From NCBI RefSeq assembly GCF_964204645.1, contig NC_134032.1, positions 9,722,275-9,786,274 of the forward strand: DNA of 64,000 nucleotides. Direction: 5' to 3'. The stretch comes from Tubulanus polymorphus (taxonomy: Eukaryota; Animalia; Nemertea). A program made the position numbers and the translations under genes. This document shows positions 9,292-64,000 of the stretch, one piece after another. Numbering within the stretch: the first letter of the stretch is position 1; each line of letters starts with the position of its first letter. Below the pieces are notes generated by a model. It had not been told where the DNA came from. It did not search any database and saw only the letters and a list, made by a program, of their open reading frames with translations.

Positions 9292-11121
9292 CTGAAAAAC
9301 AGAAAAAAATGGAAGGAAAGAATTAGATAAGAATTTCGGATTTTAGGGGGAAAACTGGCAAAAGTCTCGCAAAAAGAGTAAGGAATGTTCGGAAAATTTG
9401 AATTATCGTTCTTTCACTTCAAGCAATGTACGACTTGTTTAAAACCTTGCATCAAAATTCCAGATAATACCTCATCGATGGAAACTGTCCTCCTTTATTA
9501 TTTCAAATCCTAGCTAGGCTTCTACGTCACCGTCAGTGGATTTACGGAAGCGGTCATCTTTTCTGGACGGGTATAGGATCAATTTGATGACGATATTGGG
9601 ACTTTGAAAAAGGCAGCCGTATTTTCTAAAGCGTATGAGTAATTTGATGATATCAATATCATCGTGATGTCATTGATTTACGAAGACAGTCTTGTTTTCT
9701 AGAAGTAACGAAGGGGAAATTAGATGATGTCGCAGGGGGAAGTATGAAGTCGGCTTTATTTTCTAGCATCGATTTTAAGATACCATACGGTACGCAAGCG
9801 GCCATCTATTCGGGAATCAGGACCATAATGAACCATAAAAAATTGAACTAATGATTAAGAACGATCGATATTCGAATGCGCTAGTTTTCGGACACGCGTA
9901 CTGAATAAAAATGAAATCAACCGTTCGCAAACAGTTTGAACAGCGCGCGTGCACGTGAGTGTACCTCGCAGCAAAGCACCGGTGTTGACAGCTTGCCTGG
10001 ATCTAAAAACTGTCACTCGTACAATTCAATCGTTTCCAACAATCTGTCACATCCATGTAATAGCAATAATTAAGCCGGATTTTTGTTATATTTAGTTTAA
10101 AGGCATTAATACGTCGGAATGGATAGGGAACGAAATCAGCTTAGACCGGTCTTATAGAGAGCCGAAATGGGATTAGAATGGTCATTTAGTTTTTAAATTC
10201 GCCGTAGAATCTAAAAGAGCTTAGACTGGTTTAAAATCACTTAATTGGCTATAGAACCAAAACGAGCTAAGACTGGTCAGATAAGCTTTAGATGAGCTCA
10301 AACGGGTCATAAATGATTTCCGATTGGTTATAGAATCAAAATTAGTTTATGCTGTCGAATGTCATCTATAGAACCAAAATGAGCTTAGACCGGTCTTAAA
10401 TTATTGTATTGGTAATATAACTAAAAACATCCTTCTTCTGATTTTCTGATCTAAATGATACGTATGTTCATAATACAGTGCGCCGGTGCAGGGAAGGAAG
10501 CAACATCAAATATAGAACTGACATTTAAAATAATCCCTGGGTTCAGCCAGATTTTCTTGGATTAACGTTGTGACTACGGAGTCACTCGTACGATGAATAG
10601 ATAAGAAATTCTATACGTGAAAAAAAGCAACAGGTGTCAAAAATATATGTATTAATATTCCATAGATTTGTTGAAATTGCCTATCAAATCCACTCCCTCT
10701 CTCCCTCTCTTCCTCGTCCAAAAATTGACCCCTATCTTACTCTCTCGCCGTCCTCTTCTTAGCCCTATTCATCGTTTCTACACTCATCTTCACTTTCTAC
10801 CCTTCCTCTATCTCCCTCTCATTTCCCCCCTCAATATCTCTCTCCCCATCTCCCCTCTCGTTCGCCCATCTATGACTGTTTGTTCGCTCCTCCTTTCGTC
10901 CCTATACCTCTCCCTTTAAACCATCCACTCACCAAATCTCTTATCTCCCGCTCAATTCATATTTCTCACTCTCCCTGTTTCGGCTCAGAACAACACTTTC
11001 AATAATTCCCTAAGTTCACTTTTTGATCTCGTCGATAAACGATTGTGAACGATGATTTCACACGATATACACGATCACGATATTATATTACAATATAAAT
11101 ATATACGCGTATAGAGCTTAC

Positions 11122-50841: not shown

Positions 50842-51099
50842 GGTTAGATGTCAAACAATGATGGTTGTCTAACATCGCTAGAATGCCGGGCTAGAATGCC
50901 TGTTGTATTTCATCTGAGATAAGCAGTTTATCCAAATTGGCATTAATTAACGGGTATCGTGGATGTTACGATTGACCAATGATATTCAAAATGGGGGGCC
51001 AGATTAAGTGTCTGGCATTACTTCATGAACGCCGATCAGTGTTCACCTCCTGTCGATATCATACTAAGGTAGAACTCTGTAGTCTACCCCTTCAAAAGT

Positions 51100-52320
51100 T
51101 CGACGCTTCCAGAACAATTGCAAACATGCGATCTGTAATACAACAGATACAGCTATTTAACAGTCTTATCAAGCCAATACTTATATACGGTAGTGAAGTT
51201 TGGGGTCTTACAGGAATAACACCACTTATCAAAAATAATATGACAATTTACCTCTTGCGGCCCGCTTTAATCTAACAATAGCACAAAAAACGATGAATAG
51301 ATTCTGTCGTTCCATTCTTGGTGTACATGCCAAAACACCTACTTTACCGGTACTAGGAGACCTTGGTATTTACCCGGTCTATGTTGATAGTTTGACATCC
51401 TCAGTGAAATATTGGTTAACAGTCACGTCAAAGTATAATCATAACTCCCTTGTTTATCAAGCTATGCTAGAATCCTACTCCATGTATAAAGATAAAAATG
51501 TCATTAACTCAATATCTGCTATTCACGCAATACTTAATTACTTTGGATACTCTGAACTATGGCACAATAATGGGTCCCGGAATATTGTAAAAGCTACCAA
51601 ATCAATTAGACTATCTTTACAGGCTGACTTCAGAAATTATTGGAAAAATGAAATATCAGATTCAAAACATAGTAGATACCAATTTTATAACAAATATATG
51701 ACTGACTTTAAACTAGAAAAATATCTCATGTCTAATGATTTTTACCAAAAGTCAACAATGGCTAATTAAGTTAAGGACTAGTTCTCATAACCTCATGATT
51801 GAAAAAAGGGCGGCACCTATCAATAACTACTGAAAACCGTCTGTGTATAGTATGTAACGCTATAGAGGATGAGGAACATTTCCTATTCAACTGCACTAAA
51901 TTTGATGAATAAAGAAAGACATACAGACTTGATACACAAACTTTGATGGAAATTTTCAATTCAAACAATAACCCGAACATTTACTAAAATTTACCAAAGT
52001 CTGTATGTCCCTGCTGTAAGGTCCATTATCTAAAGTTGCCATAGCTATCTTTTTCTGTAAACAATCTATATTAATATGTGTATGTGTGTGTATATATGTA
52101 TAACTGCCGATATAGTATTTTTTGTTGAAACTTTCGAGCCATGCATATAGTCTATCGTATTACATGTATATCTGTTTTTATATTATTTTTGTGTGCTTGT
52201 TTATCAGATGTTAATGATTACTATTATTTTATATTTCTCACTCTGTAAAATTTATGTATGTATAAATGTCAGTCACAAACAGTGCAATTGTTTATACTGA
52301 ATAAATATTTGAATTGAATT
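51100..52320 (+). pseudogene. 5'-truncated, frameshifted non-LTR retrotransposon (LINE) ORF2 C-terminus and 3' tail
   Basis: LFNSLIKPILIYGSEVWG, RFCRSILGV...VLGDLG.YP, SSHNLMIEKGR and RLCIVCNAIEDEEHFLFNC (C-terminal Zn knuckle) in shifting frames; aataaa followed by a (ttgaa)n tail at ~52300-52320. Confidence 0.88.
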
Positions 52321-52511
52321 GCGAATTGCGACCCGTTTGTTGACGTCCTCTATCCACCTGCAGTTTATAAATGTCTTCCTGTCTTGTTAGGCTTCAGAAA
52401 AACAGATCTTCAGAGACAACTATTTCTATGATCAGATCATTTTTTATTCCTTTTCGAGCTTGAACCAATTAAACAATGTGGTGAATAATTGAAATAGATC
52501 GAGTATCGATG

Positions 52512-52951
52512 TTAGTTAGGACAGCAAAAGCCAATAAATCTTGAGCAACACAAGTTTCGTGCGGGTCCACCAATCAGCCAATAGGTTGACGACTTTCCCT
52601 CACAGGTGCAATGAACTCCTCTCTTTTCAACCTCAACTTCTGCAATAACAATATTGATAAAAAGTCGCATTTTCCAAGCCTCTCTTCCTTGTATGACATC
52701 TCCAACGCCGCTGCGCCCGATGTGATGTACAAGGGACCTCCAATTATCGTGATGTACATTTAGTTCGTCCAGGAAAGTTAACGTTTCGCTTGGCATCAAC
52801 TTACGATCAAGTTCTGGACTCGATTTATATATGACTTGAATTCAATTAAACTCGGAATTTCACAGGATAATTTTGAACAAAAGTTACCTTCTGCAGCGAT
52901 GGCTCCAATGACCATAAACAAGGCCAAGGCGATGAAAAGAGTCTTGTACAT
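52512..52951 (-). CDS. Secreted six-cysteine peptide precursor (63 aa), similar to sea-anemone APETx/BDS beta-defensin-fold toxins; coding exons 52951-52888 and 52639-52512
   Basis: Spliced product MYKTLFIALALFMVIGAIAAEEVEVEKR|GVHCTCEGKSSTYWLIGGPARNLCCSRFIGFCCPN. Acceptor tttcAG at 52956-52955, donor G|GTAACT at 52887, acceptor ttgcAG at 52641-52640, phase-1 consistent. AATAAA at 52448-52443; candidate upstream UTR-exon donor GTAGGT near 53413. Confidence 0.85.
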
Positions 52952-54265
52952 ACTCTGAAAGTAGATGAGAATTTCTATGATACATTTATTTCATTTCTAA
53001 AAAGTAGAATACAGCAACTGTTGGCTGCTTTCATTTATTTTACTACTCTCTTTGTCTGATAAAGATAGTATTTGAGTAAATGTTATTTTTTGATCTAGAA
53101 ATCAGAAAGCAACGCTAGACCCCTCTGTAGGCATTCGAACCTGATATTATCATGACACTGCCTCCATGCGAAACCCTGTCGCGGTAAACCTATCCCCAAC
53201 AGGCATGCACACACTGTAGTAACGAACCTGGGGCCGGTTGCATGTAGTCACGGATAAGACCGGTCTTAGTTCTATAGCCAATCTAACAACTTAAGATCAG
53301 TCTAAAGATTTAAGTCCACTTTTGGAATTAAGCCACAACTTTGCAACCAGTCCCTGTTTCATTCCTGAGTCACCCCTACTTCTGCTACTCATATATAGAG
53401 CTTAGTCACCTACCACAGATTTTTTGAGCGTCTTGTTGATGCGATCCACAACAATGATTAAAGGCAGAAAATAATCGTTACATATAGTGTAGTGAGCGTT
53501 TTTTACATAAGCATCTTTGAAGAATTTTGGAATAAATCATCCAAGTTGCATCGGATATTCACATAATCCTGCTGAATATTTTCAGGCATGTAGGACTTAT
53601 ATAGAAGAAAAAATAATTTCAGAAAAAATAATTTCGTTTTCATTATTTCCATGAATCCTTTGTTTGAGTGTCATATGAAAGTCTTGTAGTCACATTTACA
53701 TGTATATTGTCACATGCTGCAAAAGGAAAGGGAAGACCGAAGAATCAAACCCAGCCAATTACAGACTGCGATTTCTGTGGTTACAAACATGCAGCCGGAA
53801 AAGAAAGATGTCCCGCGTATAGTTAAACCTGTCAGAACTGTAACGGTCGGAATTACTTTAAAGCAAAATGTAAGAAGTCGAAAATACACGCAGTGGATAT
53901 TTCGAGTGAAAAACCGCTCGACTATGGAGACGACTGCTGGCTTAATGCTGTGCAGGCTGACACGAAAGCGGTTTACATGCACGGATGCAAGTGAATGATT
54001 GCGATATCAAATTTCAAGTCGATAGCGGAACTGATACGAAACTGTTTGATGTGCCTCACTCTAGTTCGAATACCCTGTTCAGTTTGTGACAGAAAGTTTT
54101 CTGATCGTGGAAAGAAGGCTCTTCCAATCGTGATCGGTCCCCTCCCATAGATGAGCTCTTTCACCCATATTAAAGTCAAACATTTTAATTGAATTAGCAT
54201 GGAATATATTCAAATTTAGTAAGGTTATTCATAGGCGCCTAAATGTATTTTGCTTATTCTACTCT

Positions 54266-54671
54266 AGTAATAGGGGTAATGGGCTTTCAGATCAAAGGTC
54301 GAACGGTCGAGCCCATTAAAAAACAAAATATTAAAAGTAATTAAAAAACTATAATATATTTTCATAACCGCGTGCATTTTATATCAAAACTAAATATTTA
54401 TTCTAAGATATCAATAATATAAAAAGCATATTGTATTAAATCAATTGGTCGCTCCGCTTCGCCACCGCTCCGCTCCGCGACCAATTGATTTAATTACAAT
54501 ACACAAATTCAAATAATCAAATATATTCAAATGATAATAATTATTCTATTATTCAACTGAAATGCACGCGGTTATGAAAATATATTATAGTTTTTTAATT
54601 ACTTTTAATATATGTTATTAATGAACTCGATCATTAAACCTTTAACCCGAAAGCCCATTACCCCTATTACT
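54266..54671. repeat. 406-bp nested inverted repeat (fold-back)
   Basis: Perfect arms 54266-54288/54649-54671 (23 bp), 54328-54379/54560-54611 (52 bp) and 54435-54452/54477-54494 (18 bp) around the loop tccgcttcgccaccgctccgctcc. Confidence 0.95.
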
Positions 54672-54751
54672 CTTAAAATATTCACATAAATGAATAACAT
54701 TTAAATCATTGAACTTCTAAAATCAATTTTAATAAAAAATATAGTATTAAA

Positions 54752-54925
54752 ATGGAAGCAAATAAGTACTACTGCCCAACATGTAATATTGATATAGACA
54801 AGTCTCAAAAAGCAAGACACAATAAAACTAAAACACATTTGTTTTTAATCCAGTTGGTTAAAGCAAAAACATTTATCGAATTAAGGAACTCAACACATAG
54901 TGAAAAATATGTTGAATCGTTATAA
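54752..54925 (+). CDS. 57-aa single C2H2-type zinc-finger microprotein (below the ORF-track cutoff)
   Basis: MEANKYYCPTCNIDIDKSQKARHNKTKTHLFLIQLVKAKTFIELRNSTHSEKYVESL*; C-x2-C-x11-H-x5-H; preceded by TAAAATG. Confidence 0.65.
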   Translation: MEANKYYCPTCNIDIDKSQKARHNKTKTHLFLIQLVKAKTFIELRNSTHSEKYVESL

Positions 54926-55880
54926 ACACCCGATAATACTCAGCTATATAGTTGGTTGTATTAGCTCTAGTAAACATATGTTACCAGCTTATATTTCAAT
55001 TGTAAAGAGTTAATTAATTTCATTAATCTAAATGCTTTTATTATTGTTTTTTTTCAACTTCAACACGTTGTGTATACAGCGAACGTAGCGAATCACAAAT
55101 CTCATAATTTACAAGTCCCAACACGCTTGTTCTAGATGTTTATACTAGAACATGATTCTATTTGAGCCTATATACATTCAATGTACAGAGCCATAGAATA
55201 AATCTATAAATTCACAGCTGTTACAGTTGTTACTATAACGACGAGACATTATTACACGTCATAATCAGAAACGTGTAGAATATTCTAGAACCGGAACTAG
55301 ATGGCGTGGTATAATCAACGACGTGTCATTCTAGAAATCACCCCGGAAATGGATATACGCTGTAATATTGTGCTCAGGATATTCTATCTTTCGAAACGAA
55401 ATAAGGAGTTTATAGTTTACAATTATAAATCTAAATGTAAGTACTGTTTGTTGTAGTTATTAAGGCTATTAAATACGAAACCTTTAGATATATTTAAGCG
55501 TATTTAGAATATCTTTTAGATTGCTAGAGTTACCGCTAATATCTTTTAGGTTAATAAAACGTCATACACATCAAGAAGCGATAGAGAAACTCAAGATACT
55601 CTTTCTGACTGAGGAATCAACAGCAATGGATATCAAACCAATAGAAATTAGCACAAGAAACACAAGAATCGCCAAAGATCGTCGAAGAAACTATATAAGA
55701 ATTTCAAAAACATTAAGACTCCAATGATTAAGTTTAACATTTGTTGATGTAGTTAAATATTTACCAGCAATTGAAAAAATGTTTGTAATTATAAATTGTA
55801 TTTATAGAAATCAAATGATGTATTGGAAGAAACGGCCGAACAACTTGTATAATGTATTGTGTAAATCTGATTGATGAATT

Positions 55881-56350
55881 TTTATGTTCGGTCGTTTCTA
55901 TTCAGAATGAATATATAATTATGATTAGCGCATGCGCATTAAGCAAAAACGCTCCTATAAGAGCGGTTTTGCCTAATGCGAACACGTTTAGATATTTTAT
56001 GTCGGTCGTTTCTATTTACATAATTATATATTCATTATGTAAATATAATTATGATTAGCGCATGCGCATTAAGCAAAAGCGCTCCTATAAGAGCGGTTTT
56101 GCCTAGTACACATGCGTTTGAATTTTCTATGTTCAGTTGTTTCTATTTCTAGAATGAATATATAATTATAATTAACGCATGCGCATTGATCAAAAGCGCG
56201 CACGAATGCGCGGTTTTGCCTAATGTGAACACGTTTTGATATTTTCTGTGTTCGGTCGTTTCTATTTTACAGAATTTACAGAATGAATATATAATTATGA
56301 TTAGCGCATGCGCATTAAGCAAAAGCGCGCATGAATGCGCGCTTTTGCCC
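55881..56350 (+). repeat. Four tandem ~117-130-bp units, each with a (G/A)CGCATGCGC motif and a stem-loop
   Basis: Motifs at 55928, 56058, 56175 and 56304; hairpins at 55943-55972, 56073-56102, 56191-56218 and 56319-56348. Confidence 0.93.
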
Positions 56351-56487
56351 AGTGGTATTATTTAGATATCAGGAAATCGAAACTGACTTATCAAAAGCAG
56401 CGAGGAATGAAAAAGGATGACGTTAGTCGGAGAAATGGAAGAGGATTATAAAATATTAACCAATTTAGTAAAAAATACGTATAATAA

Positions 56488-57153
56488 ATGGAACCAGAAC
56501 AACCACAAATTATCAATATTACAAATAACACTGGCGTTATAAACATATATTACAAGAAGTGTTCTAAATGTGAATTAAATAAATCATTAACAGAATTTAG
56601 TAAGCGTAAGATTAGCAAAGATGGTTTTCAAAATTGTTGTAAAACTTGTGCTAAACTATACACCAAACAATATCGAGAAGATAATATAAAACATTATAAT
56701 TATTATATGACAAAATATATGAGAGAAAGATATCAAACAGATCTTAATTTTAGATTGAAACAATGCTTAAGGACTAGAATAACACAATTATTCAACAAAG
56801 AAACACATTCAGAAACATTAACTAATTTGTTGGGTTGTTCAGATGAATTTCTCAAATCATGGATTATATATCAATTCGATGATAAAATGAATATAGATAA
56901 TTATGGGGATTATTACCACATTGATCACGTGTTACCAATATCTAAATTTAACATGAATGATGAATACAATAAAAAACTTATTTGGGGTTGGAAAAATTTA
57001 AGACCTTTAGAAAAGAAAGAAAATCAAACCAAATCTAATAAACTAGATTTACAGTTATATTTAGAACAGTTAACAAAAGCAAAGAAATTTATTGATCAAT
57101 GGAATAATAATCCAAATAATGAACAATACGTTGAGTTTTTAATGAGTGGTTAA
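56488..57153 (+). CDS. Zn-ribbon plus HNH-like (endonuclease VII-like) nuclease of the type common in giant DNA viruses and phages
   Basis: KKCSKC...EF.K...SKDG.Q..CKTC N-terminus; YHIDHVLPISKF...WKNLRPLEKKENQTKSNK HNH-type core. Confidence 0.8.
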   Translation: MEPEQPQIINITNNTGVINIYYKKCSKCELNKSLTEFSKRKISKDGFQNCCKTCAKLYTKQYREDNIKHYNYYMTKYMRERYQTDLNFRLKQCLRTRITQLFNKETHSETLTNLLGCSDEFLKSWIIYQFDDKMNIDNYGDYYHIDHVLPISKFNMNDEYNKKLIWGWKNLRPLEKKENQTKSNKLDLQLYLEQLTKAKKFIDQWNNNPNNEQYVEFLMSG

Positions 57154-57378
57154 AGAATAATATATCTCAAATAAAATATAATAAAAATTACATACCTTCA
57201 ACTATCTATTATTTCTATTTTAATTTTTAATATTTTCTTTTCAAAAAAGAATACTTTATATCACAAATAAAAAATACTAAAAAAACAATAACTAATACTA
57301 GAATTCTTTAGCTTTAACTAGCTAGTATCATTTGAAGAATACTTATAATACTATTCTTATTAAATTTCTCTAATATAA

Positions 57379-57981
57379 ATGTCTAAGAAATCGAATAAGA
57401 ATAGTATTGATATTGAAAAGACATTAGATGATTTGGGTATAAGTGATAATAAAGATACAGTTGCAACTAATTGTGCTCAAGTTAATAACAATATAGATTA
57501 TGAATACTATTTATATTGTAAGCATCATCTTGAATTATTAATTGCTGGCGGGAAATCTAAGGACTTCTTAGGAAAAATAATAACTTTTCAAGAATTAGAT
57601 AATATGAACAAAGAAAAAGTAATAAAATATTTTAAGATTTATGAAGAGTCAAGATTAGCTAGAATAAACGACTCTATAAGTGATGGTATTGTCAAATGTT
57701 ATTCTAAATTATGTAACCAGTTAATACCAATTGATGATGAAAATAAATTATATAATGATTTGAAAAATGACTATTTAGTTATGACTGAATTACAAAAATG
57801 GGTTGGATACGCTTCATTTCAATTAGGATCGGTTATGACATTAATTTCTACTGGAGTTATAACATTTTCGAACATCAAACCTATGGAATATAAATCAGGT
57901 AAGAACGAAACAGATGTACTACAACAAAACGTCGAAACAGAAAATGAATCAGAACAAAAATTAACTAAAATAAATGAGTGA
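57379..57981 (+). CDS. Viral hypothetical protein with a C-terminal hydrophobic segment
   Basis: Intact 200-aa ORF with TAAATG start and hydrophobic stretch VGYASFQLGSVMTLISTGVITF. Resembles uncharacterised ORFs of invertebrate Polinton-like elements (from memory, unverified). Confidence 0.75.
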   Translation: MSKKSNKNSIDIEKTLDDLGISDNKDTVATNCAQVNNNIDYEYYLYCKHHLELLIAGGKSKDFLGKIITFQELDNMNKEKVIKYFKIYEESRLARINDSISDGIVKCYSKLCNQLIPIDDENKLYNDLKNDYLVMTELQKWVGYASFQLGSVMTLISTGVITFSNIKPMEYKSGKNETDVLQQNVETENESEQKLTKINE

Positions 57982-58360
57982 TGGAGTTAAGAAAAAGGCT
58001 AGATCCGAGAAACAAATTAAATGGGCAAGAGAATTAGGTAAAAGATCATCAGAATTAAAAAAAGCTAAGAAAAAGAAATTAACTGATATAAATGAATCAC
58101 AGAAATTATCTGATGGTGCCGTACAGCACCCACACGGTGGTATTGAAACAAATAATAATCCATCTAATAGATTCAGCACAGCTGAATCTCATAATTACTT
58201 ATATATTACAATTGGGTTAATCACAATTATTATATTATCCGGTGTAATATATAAATCAAAATTCAAATCCGATGATAAAGATGATTCTAATGATAATAAA
58301 CCTATCATACCAGAAAATAAATCAAATGAAACTAAATATAAAATATTATTAATGGATTAA
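57974..58360 (+). CDS. Small basic single-pass membrane protein
   Basis: Lys-rich N-terminus, TM segment YLYITIGLITIIILSGVIY, TAAATG start overlapping the upstream ORF. Confidence 0.75.
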   Translation: MSDGVKKKARSEKQIKWARELGKRSSELKKAKKKKLTDINESQKLSDGAVQHPHGGIETNNNPSNRFSTAESHNYLYITIGLITIIILSGVIYKSKFKSDDKDDSNDNKPIIPENKSNETKYKILLMD

Positions 58361-58363
58361 AAT

Positions 58364-59452
58364 ATGATGAAAAAAGAACAATATTTAAGAGAGTTATATT
58401 ATAACCCAGAAAGTGAAGTATCATATTCAAGTGTTTCGGAATTATGGGATAAAATTAAATCTGATAAAGAAAAAATAAAATATAGTGAATTAAAATCATG
58501 GTTACAAAATCAACCCACATATCAAATTCATAAAAAGATGGATAAAAAATATTTAACAAGAAAAGTTATGGTTTCATATATCGATCAGCAATGGCAAGCT
58601 GATTTAATTGACATGAAAAACTTAGAAGAATATAACAAAGGATATTTCTGGATACTAAATGTTATAGATATATTCAGTAGATACGCATGGAGTATCCCGA
58701 TTAAAAATAAAACTGGTGTAGAAGTAACAATTGCTTTCAGATTAATATTTAAAGAAGCTATTCCAGATAAGATACAATTTGATGAAGGTAAGGAATTTTA
58801 TAACAAACATTTTAAAAAACTATTAACTGATAACGATGTAGAATATTTTTCAACACATTCAGATAAAAAAGCATCTGTTATAGAAAGATTTAATAAAACA
58901 TTGAAAACTAGAATGTGGAAATATTTCACCGCTAATGAAACATATAAATATATCGATGTGTTAGATGATTTAGTTAAAGGTTATAATAATTCTAAACATA
59001 GTTCTATAAATATGAAACCTATACAAGCTAGAAAAGAAGAAAATTCAGAAATAGTTTGGAATAATTTATATGGAGCATTTGTTACACATGATTTTGGAGA
59101 ACCTAAATTTAAAATAGGACAACACGTTAGAATTTCTAAATATCGAAAAACATTTTATAAAGGTTATACCCCTAATTTTACAGAAGAAATATTTAAAATT
59201 AAAAAGATAATATTAACTAAACCATTTGTTTATAAATTGTTTGATTTAAAAGATGAAGAAATATTAGGTTATTTTTATGAACAAGAATTATCATTAGTAC
59301 CAAATCCAGATGAAATAGAATACAAAATAGAAAAGGTATTGAAAACAAAAACTCTTAAAGGAAAAAAGTATTCTTTGGTGAAATATAAAGGATATGATGA
59401 TAAATTTAATGAATGGATTTTATCTAGTAAAATTAAAAGAATAAATGAATAA
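58364..59452 (+). CDS. Retroviral-like (rve, DDE) integrase with C-terminal chromodomain, Polinton c-integrase type
   Basis: WQADLIDM, VIDIFSRYAW, IQFDEGKEF and SVIERFNKTLK give an intact D-D-E triad; YKIEKVL...YSLVKYKGYDDKFNEWI chromodomain. Confidence 0.96.
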   Translation: MMKKEQYLRELYYNPESEVSYSSVSELWDKIKSDKEKIKYSELKSWLQNQPTYQIHKKMDKKYLTRKVMVSYIDQQWQADLIDMKNLEEYNKGYFWILNVIDIFSRYAWSIPIKNKTGVEVTIAFRLIFKEAIPDKIQFDEGKEFYNKHFKKLLTDNDVEYFSTHSDKKASVIERFNKTLKTRMWKYFTANETYKYIDVLDDLVKGYNNSKHSSINMKPIQARKEENSEIVWNNLYGAFVTHDFGEPKFKIGQHVRISKYRKTFYKGYTPNFTEEIFKIKKIILTKPFVYKLFDLKDEEILGYFYEQELSLVPNPDEIEYKIEKVLKTKTLKGKKYSLVKYKGYDDKFNEWILSSKIKRINE

Positions 59453-60056
59453 AGATTTATTTATATTTGAACCGCATAATATGTTAGTTACTGGAGTTAC
59501 GAATTGTGGTAAAACACATTTCATATTAGACTTGTTAGAAACTATTTATAAAAATCATTTTGATAATATAATATTATTCTGCCCAACTTATGAAATGAAT
59601 AAAACATATAATAGAGATATAGTTAAGATAAAAAAGTTTATTATATTAGACCCTAAAACAGTAAAAGAAAATTTAGATAATTGTATAAAAATTACATTAG
59701 ATATTTATAAAGGATCAAATACATTATATATTATTGATGATTGCGCAAATTTACATGATTCTAAAATTAAAGAAAGCGAGTTATGTTATTTAGCTTTCTC
59801 TGGTAGACATTTTGGGATAACAACATGGGTTTTAAATCAAAAATATAATTCAATTGTTAAAGATTTTAGAGAGAATATAAGATTTCTAGTTTTATTTTAT
59901 AACAAAGATAGAAAATCTATGCAACAATCATTGGAAGAAAATCAAATTATACCTACTGAATTACATGATGAATATATTAATAAATTAAAAAATAATAAAG
60001 GTTCAAAATTATTAATGAGATTACAATTTCCCTATGAATATAAATTTATAAAATAA
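59445..60056 (+). CDS. A32/FtsK-HerA-type DNA packaging ATPase
   Basis: Walker A GVTNCGKT, Walker B YIIDD, SGRH arginine finger, WVLNQ sensor, FRENI. Confidence 0.93.
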   Translation: MNKDLFIFEPHNMLVTGVTNCGKTHFILDLLETIYKNHFDNIILFCPTYEMNKTYNRDIVKIKKFIILDPKTVKENLDNCIKITLDIYKGSNTLYIIDDCANLHDSKIKESELCYLAFSGRHFGITTWVLNQKYNSIVKDFRENIRFLVLFYNKDRKSMQQSLEENQIIPTELHDEYINKLKNNKGSKLLMRLQFPYEYKFIK

Positions 60057-60072
60057 AATCCTAATTCAAAAT

Positions 60073-60667
60073 ATTATAGAATTAGATATATATTAGATAC
60101 TGTATATTGATGGATGAGTGGATGAATTGGATGAATTGGATGAATTGGAAGAGTGGATGAATGGAAGAGTGTAATAATATATAATTTACATATGTTTTTT
60201 ATTTTTAAAACAGTAAGAGTTTGATTTGAAGATGTCATATAATAATAAATATATTTTTATAAAATAATAAAATGACAGATAATAAATGACATATAATAAA
60301 AAATATATTTTCATAAAATAATAAATAATAAAATGATAAATAATAAAATGATAAATAATAAATATATTTTTATAAAATAATAAATAATAAAATGATAAAT
60401 AATAAAATGATAAATAATAAATATATTTTTATAAAATAATAAATAATAAAATGATAAATAATAAATGTCATATAATAATAAATATATATTGTGTTAAATT
60501 TAATAAAGAATAAAAATATTATATTTATACTCATACTATTCTTCCAATTTATGTGTTAAAAAGTAAAATATATATATTATTATACTCATTCACTCTTCCA
60601 CTCATCCAATTCATCCAACTCTTCCAACTCATCCATTCATCCATCAATATACAGTGAATTCTATAAT
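60073..60667. repeat. Large imperfect inverted repeat between convergent genes, with internal AT-rich tandem repeats
   Basis: actgtatattgatggatga (from 60099) vs tcatccatcaatatacagt (to 60655); attatagaatt vs aattctataat; mirrored ggatgaatt/aattcatcc repeats; internal aaataataaaatgat repeats. Confidence 0.9.
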
Positions 60668-60671
60668 CTTT

Positions 60672-61742
60672 TTAATTTTCATTTTCATATTTTTCTTTAA
60701 GCTCATTGTATTCAAAATATATATCCCTTTGTATTTTTATTGATATAATTCCTGAACGATTCCCGAGTTTATATTTATAGAATTTTGCTCTTGAAAATAT
60801 TTTTGGAATATAATTTTCGATTTCAGTTTTAGATGGATGTTTATTTAAAAATTCTCTAAAATCATCATATTTAAGTTCAAATAAGTTCATTGCATAACTT
60901 ACATTTGGTTTAAAGTTATCTAACTTTTTCAATATGGTAACTATATCATTACTCGAGAAATAATCTATAAATGTTTTTCTATACCACCGATAATCTAATA
61001 TATTATTATTATTAAATTTTGGATTTATAACTCTTGGATCTTCTATAACACTATCTGTACCAATATGTTTAATTGAGTATTTATGATTCAATTGTTTATC
61101 ATATATTACATATTCTTTACATTTTTCACACCAAGATTTAAATACTTTTATTGCATGGGCTGAATCATTTCCACTTTTTGTTTTTAATTTATAATGTTTT
61201 GCCCAATTAGCCTTTGTTATACATTCATTACAGAAAGCACAATAATTCTGATCCTCTTTACATTTATCTTTATATATATTGGCATATGTTTTTACTAATT
61301 GTAAAATATGTTCATCTTTTTTGATGTGTAATAAATAATCATTATAATTATCAAAATCTTCTTCACAATACATACATCTGATGTTATCTTTTGGTTGAAC
61401 ATTTGATTTTTCTATTTTAGGTTCAATATTATGTTCTATTTTAGGTTCAATATTATCATCATCATTCGATGTAGAAGGTATAACATTATCTTCTATTTTA
61501 GGTTCAATATTATTATCTATTTTTGTTTCAATATTATCTTTTATTTTAGGTTCAATATTATCTTCTATTTTTATATCAATATTATTATTACGTTCAATTA
61601 AATATTCTTTGTATTGATTTAATTCATTTAATAAAAATGTTCCAATATATTCATTTATTCTTTTATAAGGTATTACATAATACAAATCATCATTGATTTC
61701 TTTATCAGCTTTGATTCTTTCATATACTTTACCTCCTTCCAT
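60672..61742 (-). CDS. Viral multi-zinc-finger protein with NIEPKIED repeats
   Basis: CMYC...HIKKDEH, CAFC...HYK and CEKC...HKYSIKH fingers; 8-aa tandem repeats; TAAATG start. Confidence 0.8.
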   Translation of the reverse strand: MEGGKVYERIKADKEINDDLYYVIPYKRINEYIGTFLLNELNQYKEYLIERNNNIDIKIEDNIEPKIKDNIETKIDNNIEPKIEDNVIPSTSNDDDNIEPKIEHNIEPKIEKSNVQPKDNIRCMYCEEDFDNYNDYLLHIKKDEHILQLVKTYANIYKDKCKEDQNYCAFCNECITKANWAKHYKLKTKSGNDSAHAIKVFKSWCEKCKEYVIYDKQLNHKYSIKHIGTDSVIEDPRVINPKFNNNNILDYRWYRKTFIDYFSSNDIVTILKKLDNFKPNVSYAMNLFELKYDDFREFLNKHPSKTEIENYIPKIFSRAKFYKYKLGNRSGIISIKIQRDIYFEYNELKEKYENEN

Positions 61743-61774
61743 TTATTATATATATTTTTATTAAAGTTAAAATT

Positions 61775-63022
61775 TTAATACATAACACTATCTAATTGTG
61801 AATTTAGAATATTTAATTGCGCGTCAGATATAATATAAATATGCATTTTAAAATTTTTAATTCCCTTTTTCTTTGTCATGAATAATTGTATTCCATCTTT
61901 TGTATTTTGTAGTTTTTTTCCAGAACCATGTAATGAATTATCCTCTGTTGTTCTAAAATCTAACCATAATGCATATTTATTACCGGTATAATAATCAATT
62001 TGATTAATGTTACAATTTTCAAATGATTTTACTTTTTCATTCATAAAATGTTTTTTAATTTCTACCCATTGATCTATCATTCTCATTCCTTGACAAAATA
62101 TTTTATTCGCTATTCCTTCGATAGTTATTTCTACTTTTGTTATTTCAGGATTATAATAATTATCAACATTTATTGCACCATTAGTATACGTTCCAATAGT
62201 AAAAAATATTAATATACCTTTAATAGATCTTCTAGGAAAGTTAATATTCTCATTTATTATTTCATCATTTGCATTAATAGTAACAGTTTTAAATTTATCA
62301 ATATAATCATATAATAATGAAAACCCTTGATTGTATTTAGTTTGAATTATACTTGAAATATTTTCATCAGTTACTGTATCATATTCTAAACATATATTCG
62401 ATAATTTATAACTCATATCTTTATTAACACTAGATATTACAATTTCATTTACAGGAGCAAATGTTATTTCGAATATAATATCTTCTTGAATTGCGTATTT
62501 ATATAAAGGTGCATTATTATTTATCAATTCAAAGTCTAATGGAATTTTATATTTGCTTCCATATATACTTTTAATCAATTTATCTACATCATTAGTTAAT
62601 ATTGCGCTATTAGCTTCTGATCTTAATTTATTTTGGTTTTCTGATTGAATTCCTTGAAATATCATATTATTTCTATTTTCTTTAGTTAACCACAAATCTT
62701 TATAATGCATAAATAAATTATAATCATCTAATGAGAAAACTGTTTCTGGACCAATCTTTATTGTTAACTTTTTAATCAAATATCTTCCAACATTATCAAC
62801 GACATAATTATTATTATTACCGATTACTTTTATATCAGCTGATAAATAAATACTGTTTGGAACATAAAAAGTATTTTGTGTTAATCTAGGAATTCTAACG
62901 TATAAAGTTTCATCGGGATTGATATTAGAAGGGTTATGAGTAATTATATGATGTGATCTTTCTGCTTTAATAGCATTAGATATTCTATGATTCTTAGAAG
63001 GATTGATATAACTCCCACTCAT
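61775..63022 (-). CDS. Probable major capsid protein (double jelly-roll)
   Basis: 415 aa, beta-strand-rich, next to the packaging ATPase and integrase. Motifs ITHNPSNINPDETLYVRIPRL, NVGRYLIKKLTIK, LSNICLEYD and YALWLDFRTTEDNSLHGSG recall capsid-like ORFs of invertebrate Polinton-like elements; needs profile/structure confirmation. Confidence 0.75.
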   Translation of the reverse strand: MSGSYINPSKNHRISNAIKAERSHHIITHNPSNINPDETLYVRIPRLTQNTFYVPNSIYLSADIKVIGNNNNYVVDNVGRYLIKKLTIKIGPETVFSLDDYNLFMHYKDLWLTKENRNNMIFQGIQSENQNKLRSEANSAILTNDVDKLIKSIYGSKYKIPLDFELINNNAPLYKYAIQEDIIFEITFAPVNEIVISSVNKDMSYKLSNICLEYDTVTDENISSIIQTKYNQGFSLLYDYIDKFKTVTINANDEIINENINFPRRSIKGILIFFTIGTYTNGAINVDNYYNPEITKVEITIEGIANKIFCQGMRMIDQWVEIKKHFMNEKVKSFENCNINQIDYYTGNKYALWLDFRTTEDNSLHGSGKKLQNTKDGIQLFMTKKKGIKNFKMHIYIISDAQLNILNSQLDSVMY

Positions 63023-63046
63023 TTATTTAACAAAAAAATTAATTAT

Positions 63047-64000
63047 TTATTTTTTGATATTTTTTGATATCATATTTACTAAACCAAAAATAATAGCACT
63101 TACAACTGTAATTAAAAATAAAATAATATGTTCAGCAGCAAAGTTAATAATGTTTCCTGCAGATTTCAATATAAAACCAACAATTGAAGCAATAACTCCT
63201 GGTAAAGCTGCAGCAGATTTCTTTGATAGTTCCCATAAATATTTTGCTAATTTCTTTAAACCATCTTTAACTTTATCTTGTATAGAATTATTACCTGGAG
63301 GTTTATCTGGTTTATTGGGAGTAGGAGTAGATTTTAAAGCATTTGATATTGCTAAACCAATTGTTGTAAATACCATAGTTACAGCTGTTAGAATTGAAAG
63401 AATTGTTATTCCTTCTAATTCAAATAATAACTTTATTCTGTCTTTTAATGATATTTCAGAATTTGGTTTAATCAACAAATCTTTAAAAATAACTTTTAAT
63501 CTATTAATATTATAATCATATGATTTTAATAATAATTTAATTTCTTCTTTTTGTAATTCTATGTTATATTCTAAATCATCTTTTTCTTTTTCTAAATATG
63601 CATTTCTTTTTTTAAATTCAATTTCTTCAATAACTTTATTATCTCTATCTAATTTTAATTGTTCAATTTCTTTTCTTGATTTTAATAATTCATCTTCTAA
63701 AGTTCTAATTTTTAAATCTCTTATACTTTTATCATGCGCAATTTTTTCAGATGCAAGTCTTATACTAATAATTTCTCTAATTGCTTTATCAGAAAATATA
63801 TCTAAATCTTCTAATTCTTGATCTGTTGCATCAAGTAACCCATTCGGTAAAAGTTTTCAATTGGAACTTTATTTGATTTAGGTTTACTAGTTTTGGAAGT
63901 TTTATTCAGTAAGTTATCTAAACGTTTTTCTAATTGTGATTGACTTAAATCATTATCAATTTGTTGAGTGTCTCTTCTCGATGTTTCCGGTGTTGAAGAT
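63047..64000 (-). pseudogene. Coiled-coil protein with C-terminal hydrophobic/amphipathic helices; apparent frameshift near 63850; 5' end beyond the window
   Basis: The frame is open from 63856 to the stop at 63047 (KLLPNGLLDATDQELEDL...SLKDRIKLLFELEGITILSILTAV...) without an N-terminal ATG. Upstream sequence 63999-63850 is open in the adjacent frame (SSTPETSRRD...KVPIENF). Confidence 0.7.

Follow-up and report, generated by a model that had tools for sequence, protein, structure and literature searches.

Poxvirus-late-type start signals on the genes of an endogenous Maverick in the nemertean Tubulanus polymorphus

Two questions about Mavericks are open: by what means their genes are expressed, and whether these elements live as autonomous nuclear viruses or as parasites of larger viruses. 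Both are raised by a Maverick in the genome of Tubulanus polymorphus, which we follow from its left end at 54266 to the edge, at 64000, of a 64,000-nucleotide stretch of DNA (the window; NC_134032.1, positions 9,722,275 to 9,786,274 of the forward strand), the right part of the element lying beyond the window. Nearly every gene begins with TAAATG, preceded by a short A/T block, in the manner of a poxvirus late promoter. We consider it probable that a co-infecting cytoplasmic virus of the poxvirus type would supply the RNA polymerase for these genes, and that the element would be its virophage-like parasite.

A two-part signal at the gene starts

A sequence-only reading of the window had described eight gene starts, and all eight contexts are exact. 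TAA abuts the ATG at 56488, 57379, 57974 and 59445 on the forward strand and at 61742 and 63022 on the reverse strand, and the two variants are TAAAATG (54752) and TAAAATATG (58364). TAAATG opens six of the eight listed open reading frames (ORFs), and six of seven among those of at least 128 amino acids (aa). On both strands of 54672-64000, TAA precedes 24 of 366 ATGs, or 18 of 358 (5%) with the eight starts excluded; the sequence-only reading had estimated ~6%. With a background of p=0.06 the binomial probability of six in eight is 1e-6, and with p=0.15 it is 2e-4. Two proteins were said to end in -INE* over the following start, and they do: ORF 57379-57981 closes with TKINE* and ORF 58364-59452 with KRINE*, each overlapping the next TAAATG, an ending also present in the related locus L004.

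The hexamer is only the downstream half of the signal. When 74 TAAATG starts are aligned, A peaks at -18 to -16 (62-70%) and T at -14 to -12 (61-81%, with 81% at -12), followed by a mixed spacer. In the window, T stands at -12 in 6/6 starts versus 7/18 internal TAAATG (P=0.016), and positions -18 to -12 hold A/T only in 5/6 starts versus 1/18 internal sites (P=8e-4). Across the clade of related elements defined below, T is found at -12 in 49/55 starts versus 35/103 internal sites (P=1e-11), and 17 of 21 starts versus 9 of 32 internal sites have it in loci with a GC content of at least 0.30. T-runs of at least five end 6-8 nt before the TAA in 23 of 26 cases. The upstream A/T block with T at -12 is part of the signal, and the sequence-only reading had overlooked it. 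A purine at -3 is the start-codon context rule; T occupies that position in 50 of 59 clade starts, and A or G in 26/32 and 61/72 starts of two sister groups (87/104). Divergent gene pairs carry the motif back to back (CATTTA...TAAATG, 15-30 nt apart) in seven of the nine pairs listed.

This architecture was compared with published accounts of poxvirus promoters, in the passages that describe them. In vaccinia late promoters TAAAT(G) overlaps the start codon, the 10th nucleotide upstream is a conserved T (PMC11980589) and a T-containing core lies 5-7 bp from TAAAT (PMC5294985), in agreement with the sequence-only reading of TAAAT(G) as the poxvirus late-promoter initiator; the viral polymerase reads TAAA directly (PMC12917281). 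The element is alike in that TAAAT overlaps the ATG, is usually followed by G and has a T-run ~10 nt upstream. Its T at -12 lies 9 nt before the T of TAAAT and 10 nt before the first A, so that, by the published descriptions, the signal matches the vaccinia late promoter within one base. The vaccinia intermediate core spans -26 to -13 from the start site (PMC12917281), and the A-run of the element (-18 to -16) is nearer the start; the late class fits better because the intermediate core lies further out.

Distribution of the motif among related elements

A capsid profile search yielded 80 metagenome loci and three genome loci (L numbers), all partial (1-14 kb). In these 83 loci and the window we took ORFs of at least 90 aa from the first ATG and scored TAA before it; an in-frame stop TAA before an ATG makes that ATG the first, a bias that the controls share. 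Group counts cover 41 of the 84 sources, near-duplicates (L002, L013, L017, L031 and L052) and short or broken loci being left out, and the window clade of 15 sources was defined by capsid tree or identity. In this clade, TAAATG stands at 49 of 59 homologue-supported ORFs versus 4.5% of other ATGs, and it is kept across GC contents of 0.20-0.44, including two of three starts in L006 and three of four in L007 (GC 0.40-0.44). The two sister groups have it at 0/32 and 0/72 starts (0/104 in total). The sequence-only reading would have been undone by a motif no commoner than in an AT-matched Kozak background; the AT-rich sister elements (GC 0.26-0.31) have it at 0/20 starts and retain A at -3, and a pair of unrelated viral contigs, also AT-rich and with an integrase, show it at 1/19. 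Seven distant loci, picked by the motif to form a fourth group, have it at 19/21, a count whose P value is circular for that reason. The TAAATG start is a real and strong feature of this lineage as a whole, a lineage trait. What had been proposed about its nature also held in part: a promoter-like role and a poxvirus-late architecture gain support from the upstream T-run, the conservation across the clade, the absence from AT-rich sisters, the T at -3 and the back-to-back motifs.

A capsid tree of 29 rows (LG+G4, with one long branch) rejects a single clade of the 17 motif-bearing rows (p-AU 0.001), giving at least three changes. This interleaved pattern would follow either from elements changing their promoter type or from an exchange of their capsid genes. 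Five sister elements (L015, L016, L018, L019 and L044) have TATA no more than 14 nt from the ATG in 20 of 32 genes versus a background of 7.7%, even at GC 0.47-0.49. The late initiator of African swine fever virus (ASFV) is likewise TATA, with a median untranslated region (UTR) of 9 nt, as described in PMC7163114, but this match is less specific than that between TAAATG and poxviruses: TATA near the ATG also occurs at 22/72 starts in the outgroup clade and at several L085 starts.

Scans of IMG/VR with the capsid, the protein-primed DNA polymerase B (pPolB) and the ATPase returned nothing, and with the integrase two unrelated contigs; a phage collection gave no capsid match. In cluster P0045, short contigs carry capsid homologues (54%) labelled as hypothetical proteins of Bartonella; these are probably host-animal DNA in those assemblies. 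In the close relative L003, a deoxynucleoside kinase gene (10340-10981; PF01712 E=2e-31) has a TAAATG start, and a homologue search with it gave 38 matches, no named poxvirus relative among them.

Gene content, ends and copy number

By gene content the element is an endogenous, multi-copy Maverick/Polinton, with an rve integrase, an A32 ATPase and a double-jelly-roll (DJR) capsid protein. Its features in the window are as follows.

54266-54671, no strand: left end, a AGTAATAG terminus opening an imperfect palindrome of 406 bp (AGTAATAG...CTATTACT), placed by loose read ends; arms 76% self-complementary
54752-54925, forward: zinc-finger-like ORF, 57 aa, variant start TAAAATG; zf-U1/zf_UBZ matches weak, below cut-off
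55899-56378, no strand: four tandem repeats of ~125 bp with GC-rich hairpins (family D3), from repeat analysis
56470-56490, forward: bipartite promoter-like site, with A/T block, T at -12 and TAAATG
56488-57153, forward: Zn-ribbon/HNH-like endonuclease, 221 aa; HNH_4 E=0.028, below cut-off
57361-57381, forward: bipartite promoter-like site, TTT at -14 to -12 and TAAATG
57379-57981, forward: conserved core protein, 200 aa, 24-member family, -INE* end over the next TAAATG
57956-57976, forward: promoter-like site within coding sequence, AAAAATT..TAAATG
57974-58360, forward: 128-aa protein with a hydrophobic stretch; homologues in L001, L003 and L004
58364-59452, forward: rve integrase with chromodomain, -INE* end; PF00665 E=2.6e-9 (above cut-off), PF00385 E=7.8e-5
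59427-59447, forward: promoter-like site within the integrase coding sequence
59445-60056, forward: A32-like packaging ATPase; PF04665 E=4.5e-11
60672-61742, reverse: TAAATG-started protein of 356 aa carrying zinc-finger-like motifs and short repeats; homologues confined to L001, L002 and L004
61740-61760, reverse: bipartite promoter-like site
61775-63022, reverse: DJR major capsid protein, 415 aa; model pLDDT 84
63020-63040, reverse: capsid-gene promoter-like site, bipartite; its T-run stops 6 nt before TAAATG
63047-64000, reverse: conserved core gene, 3' part, start beyond the window; 485 aa in L003; tblastn 69% to the L003 ORF over 63068-63853

The best Foldseek matches of the capsid model are DJR capsids (E 1e-18 to 1e-15, TM about 0.6). 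Its sequence relatives are Maverick-type loci, and it is not of the virophage type (Virophaviricetes), the mavirus capsid ranking 47-49 at 9-10% identity, no better than other DJR capsids. No pPolB lies in the window part or in L001-L005, and one is present in the motif-bearing L067 (35% to the pPolB of L028), which overlaps L034 at 98%; among the element genes read, no cysteine protease was seen. The integrase starts with TAAAAT-ATG in the window and L004 and with TAAATG in L001. Homologues of the HNH-like gene were found only in the motif-bearing loci L001, L006, L007 and L014, and a homologue search with this gene gave three unnamed matches and no named poxvirus relative. The 200-aa core protein is modelled as all-helical (pTM 0.52) with no fold-search match at E<=0.001, and so gives no hint of a role as a transcription factor; profile searches of the PDB with two conserved unknown families found nothing. 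The frame of the core gene at 63047-64000 is broken near 63.8 kb in the window copy.

An inverted repeat with 85-nt arms lies 3' of the ATPase gene (60099-60655), and hairpins stand 3' of the ATPase in L001 (3688-3852), L004 (3163-3275) and L003 (9173-9340), with z of -5.3, -7.9 and -2.6. They are possibly a terminator or an origin. A general 3' hairpin rule of the mimivirus style was rejected: three of 23 folded intergenic gaps reach z < -4, two of them after the ATPase. The tandem repeats at 55899-56378, upstream of the first long gene, have no counterpart in the related loci.

From 54.3 kb of the window onward GC falls to 18-31%, and the element is 76% AT. Its left end was placed with raw reads of run X6, which carries the same species label and comes from another sample; read coverage spans 51000-60100 only. 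There, loose ends before 54266 occur in 1448 reads whose flanks are mixed (agreement 0.34), so that AGTAATAG marks the left end. Terminal inverted repeats of Mavericks/Polintons begin with AG, and their target-site duplication is 6 bp. Depth over 54.3-54.95 kb is ~2x that of the interior, as expected for a repeat at both ends, and depth over 56.5-60.1 kb is ~65x that of 51.0-52.2 kb at 90% likeness, which implies tens of copies. The 406-bp palindrome repeats the terminal sequence of the element in reverse, and it is reminiscent of the hairpin telomeres of poxviruses. An independent miniature inverted-repeat transposable element was disfavoured as its source: none of the major loose-end sites listed falls at 54671, and depth remains high as far as 54.95 kb. 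Read joints at 54840/57047 (187 reads) and 57135/55135 (163 reads) show that other copies are rearranged around the HNH-like gene. From run X8, presumed to be RNA, one contig matched on two pieces of 18-20 nt, which speaks neither for nor against expression. A high-copy host tandem repeat with 35-42-nt units lies at 53264-53306, 1 kb left of the element.

Which polymerase reads the signal, and what the element resembles

A two-part signal of the poxvirus late type at the gene starts makes transcription by a helper polymerase likely, and helper dependence is likely as judged from promoter architecture only. We propose that infection of the cell by a poxvirus-type virus would wake an otherwise silent integrated element. 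The helper polymerase would then recognise the A/T block and TAAA and start within the AAA, and slippage would add a 5' poly(A) leader, which would stand in for the absent 5' UTR and bring a purine to -3, so that genes without a 5' UTR and with T at -3 could be translated. The integrase, ATPase, capsid and DNA polymerase (the last in the relative L034/L067) would be made only during helper infection, and new copies would integrate via the rve integrase.

Several observations weigh against this proposal. No helper virus was found and no poxvirus was tied to the host in the analysis, and the likeness to late promoters was drawn from published descriptions. The exact motif is missing at 12 of 80 homologue-supported starts, though broken genes account for several of these and TAAAT-A or TAAAAT variants for five (three of the five on integrase genes). 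The upstream part of the signal is weaker in the distant motif group, with T at -12 in 11/19 starts versus 10/35 internal sites (P=0.045). The poly(A) signal AATAAA, whose depletion was used to tell cytoplasmic from nuclear transcription, is not depleted in the window genes (30 seen versus 28.8 expected from synonymous shuffles). It is barely depleted in control groups either (observed/expected 0.83, 0.94 and 0.52; z -0.4 to -1.8). T5NT is depleted in the clade (observed/expected 0.39-0.44), as are A-runs; counts of AATAAA, T5NT and CpG fail to separate groups with and without the motif. Finally, transcription factors encoded by the element could lie in its right part beyond the window, the related loci being partial, and weak Pox_VLTF3 matches, below cut-off, occur in the sister loci L016 (6543-7052, E 6e-4) and L018 (5082-5579, E 4e-5).

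These last points lead to the explanation that competes most directly. It takes the signal for a late promoter that serves transcription factors or a polymerase of the element itself, encoded in the right part, with or without host RNA polymerase II (Pol II) and with no helper, the likeness to poxviruses being inherited or convergent. The right half does lie beyond the window, a VLTF3-like ORF exists in the sisters L016, L017 and L018, and all gene classes carry the motif alike. Yet the 15 ORFs in 11.5 kb of L003 include no such factor, and neither do the other motif loci scanned. Searches for TBP, TFIIB, VLTF3 and RNA polymerase gave no Pfam match in nine window ORFs and in 61 and 17 locus ORFs, bar the weak VLTF3-like ones in L016 and L018, which are non-motif loci; by a two-sequence hidden Markov model, these have no homologue in other loci. 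The upstream block, 9-15 nt from the initiator, is also too near for the canonical TBP-TFIIB-Pol II arrangement (about 24 bp, as given in PMC7163114), and with the initiator and the ATG fused there would be no 5' UTR without slippage, by which the poxvirus polymerase adds a 5' poly(A) leader (described for vaccinia in the same paper). We regard transcription by the element's own factors as unlikely. Less likely still is a helper from outside the poxviruses, such as an egovirus, an asfuvirus or an unknown Pokkesviricetes lineage with a similar late promoter. No poxvirus having been tied to the host, such a helper could be entertained: close poxvirus relatives exist, their promoters unmentioned in the accessible text of 10.1101/2024.03.23.586382, and TAAAT also occurs in ranavirus polymerase promoters according to PMC5294985. 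The late motifs described for mimivirus and CroV differ, however, as does the ASFV initiator with its 9-nt leader, and fusion of TAAAT to the ATG with T ~10 nt upstream is described for poxviruses (PMC11980589).

The least probable account, one that is largely refuted, makes TAAATG a feature or by-product of translation, explained either by coupling of stop and start codons on polycistronic RNA or by a Kozak-like start context rich in A and T. Genes are tightly packed (the upstream gene overlaps eight of the 74 motif starts and ends within 10 nt of five others) and the element is 76% AT, but the TAA is the stop of the upstream gene at only 2/74 starts, on which count we rejected stop-start coupling, and 20/74 starts face a divergent gene. 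The absence from AT-rich sisters, which keep A at -3, speaks against an AT-rich context, and a fixed T at -12 is unexpected for a translation signal.

The precise late-type promoter on nearly every gene of an rve-integrating animal Maverick makes the question of expression testable. Transcription by a poxvirus-type helper would point to poxvirus-type viruses in hosts with no such record in the literature searched, and would mean that the endogenous-virophage strategy reaches beyond protists into animal germlines. More tentatively, and with the odds against it, a family of animal Mavericks may be endogenous hyperparasites whose promoter dialect tracks the helper, with TAAATG indicating a poxvirus-type and the interleaved TATA (with a VLTF3-like gene in some) an asfarvirus-type virus, and at least three switches on the capsid tree. 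If so, undiscovered poxviruses in marine invertebrate phyla would be predictable from the promoter logos of integrated Mavericks, and the elements would form an inherited, infection-triggered antiviral layer in animals.

With Mavericks/Polintons (Polintoviricetes; the adintoviruses of PMC8502044 and group 2 of 10.64898/2026.06.19.733378) the element shares the rve integrase, A32 ATPase, DJR capsid, AG-starting end and many integrated copies, and pPolB via the motif-bearing relative L034/L067; it differs by the poxvirus-type start signal on nearly every gene. In the accessible main text of those two papers the word 'promoter' is absent, as it is in that of 10.64898/2026.10.13.758929 and 10.1101/2024.03.23.586382, and 'transcription' is absent from that of PMC11161782. 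A literature search that reached few subscription papers found no publication describing TAAATG or poxvirus promoters in Mavericks. Compared with vaccinia and mpox viruses, whose late promoter it resembles, the element is of the ~20-kb class and has no detected RNA polymerase. Polinton-like viruses (PLVs) named AHEV_PLV1/2 and CBEV_PLV1, found in occlusion bodies of insect entomopoxviruses, have been proposed as poxvirus parasites (Barth et al. 2024, PMC11296320, whose accessible main text lacks 'promoter' and 'motif'). By the description given there, they have a Polinton-type capsid module in common with the element, but a tyrosine recombinase/primase-helicase end module or no integrase where the element has the rve integrase. 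Virophages share regulatory elements with their helpers, as reported in PMC11464507. The endogenous virophages and PLVs of protists (mavirus with CroV; the Tetraselmis PLVs of 10.1101/2025.10.09.676808) are integrated small DNA viruses; for them, as for the element, reactivation by an infecting large virus is proposed. Mavirus shares regulatory elements with its helper CroV. The element, known here from sequence, differs from these protist viruses in its animal host, its Maverick-type capsid and a start signal of the poxvirus rather than the mimivirus type.

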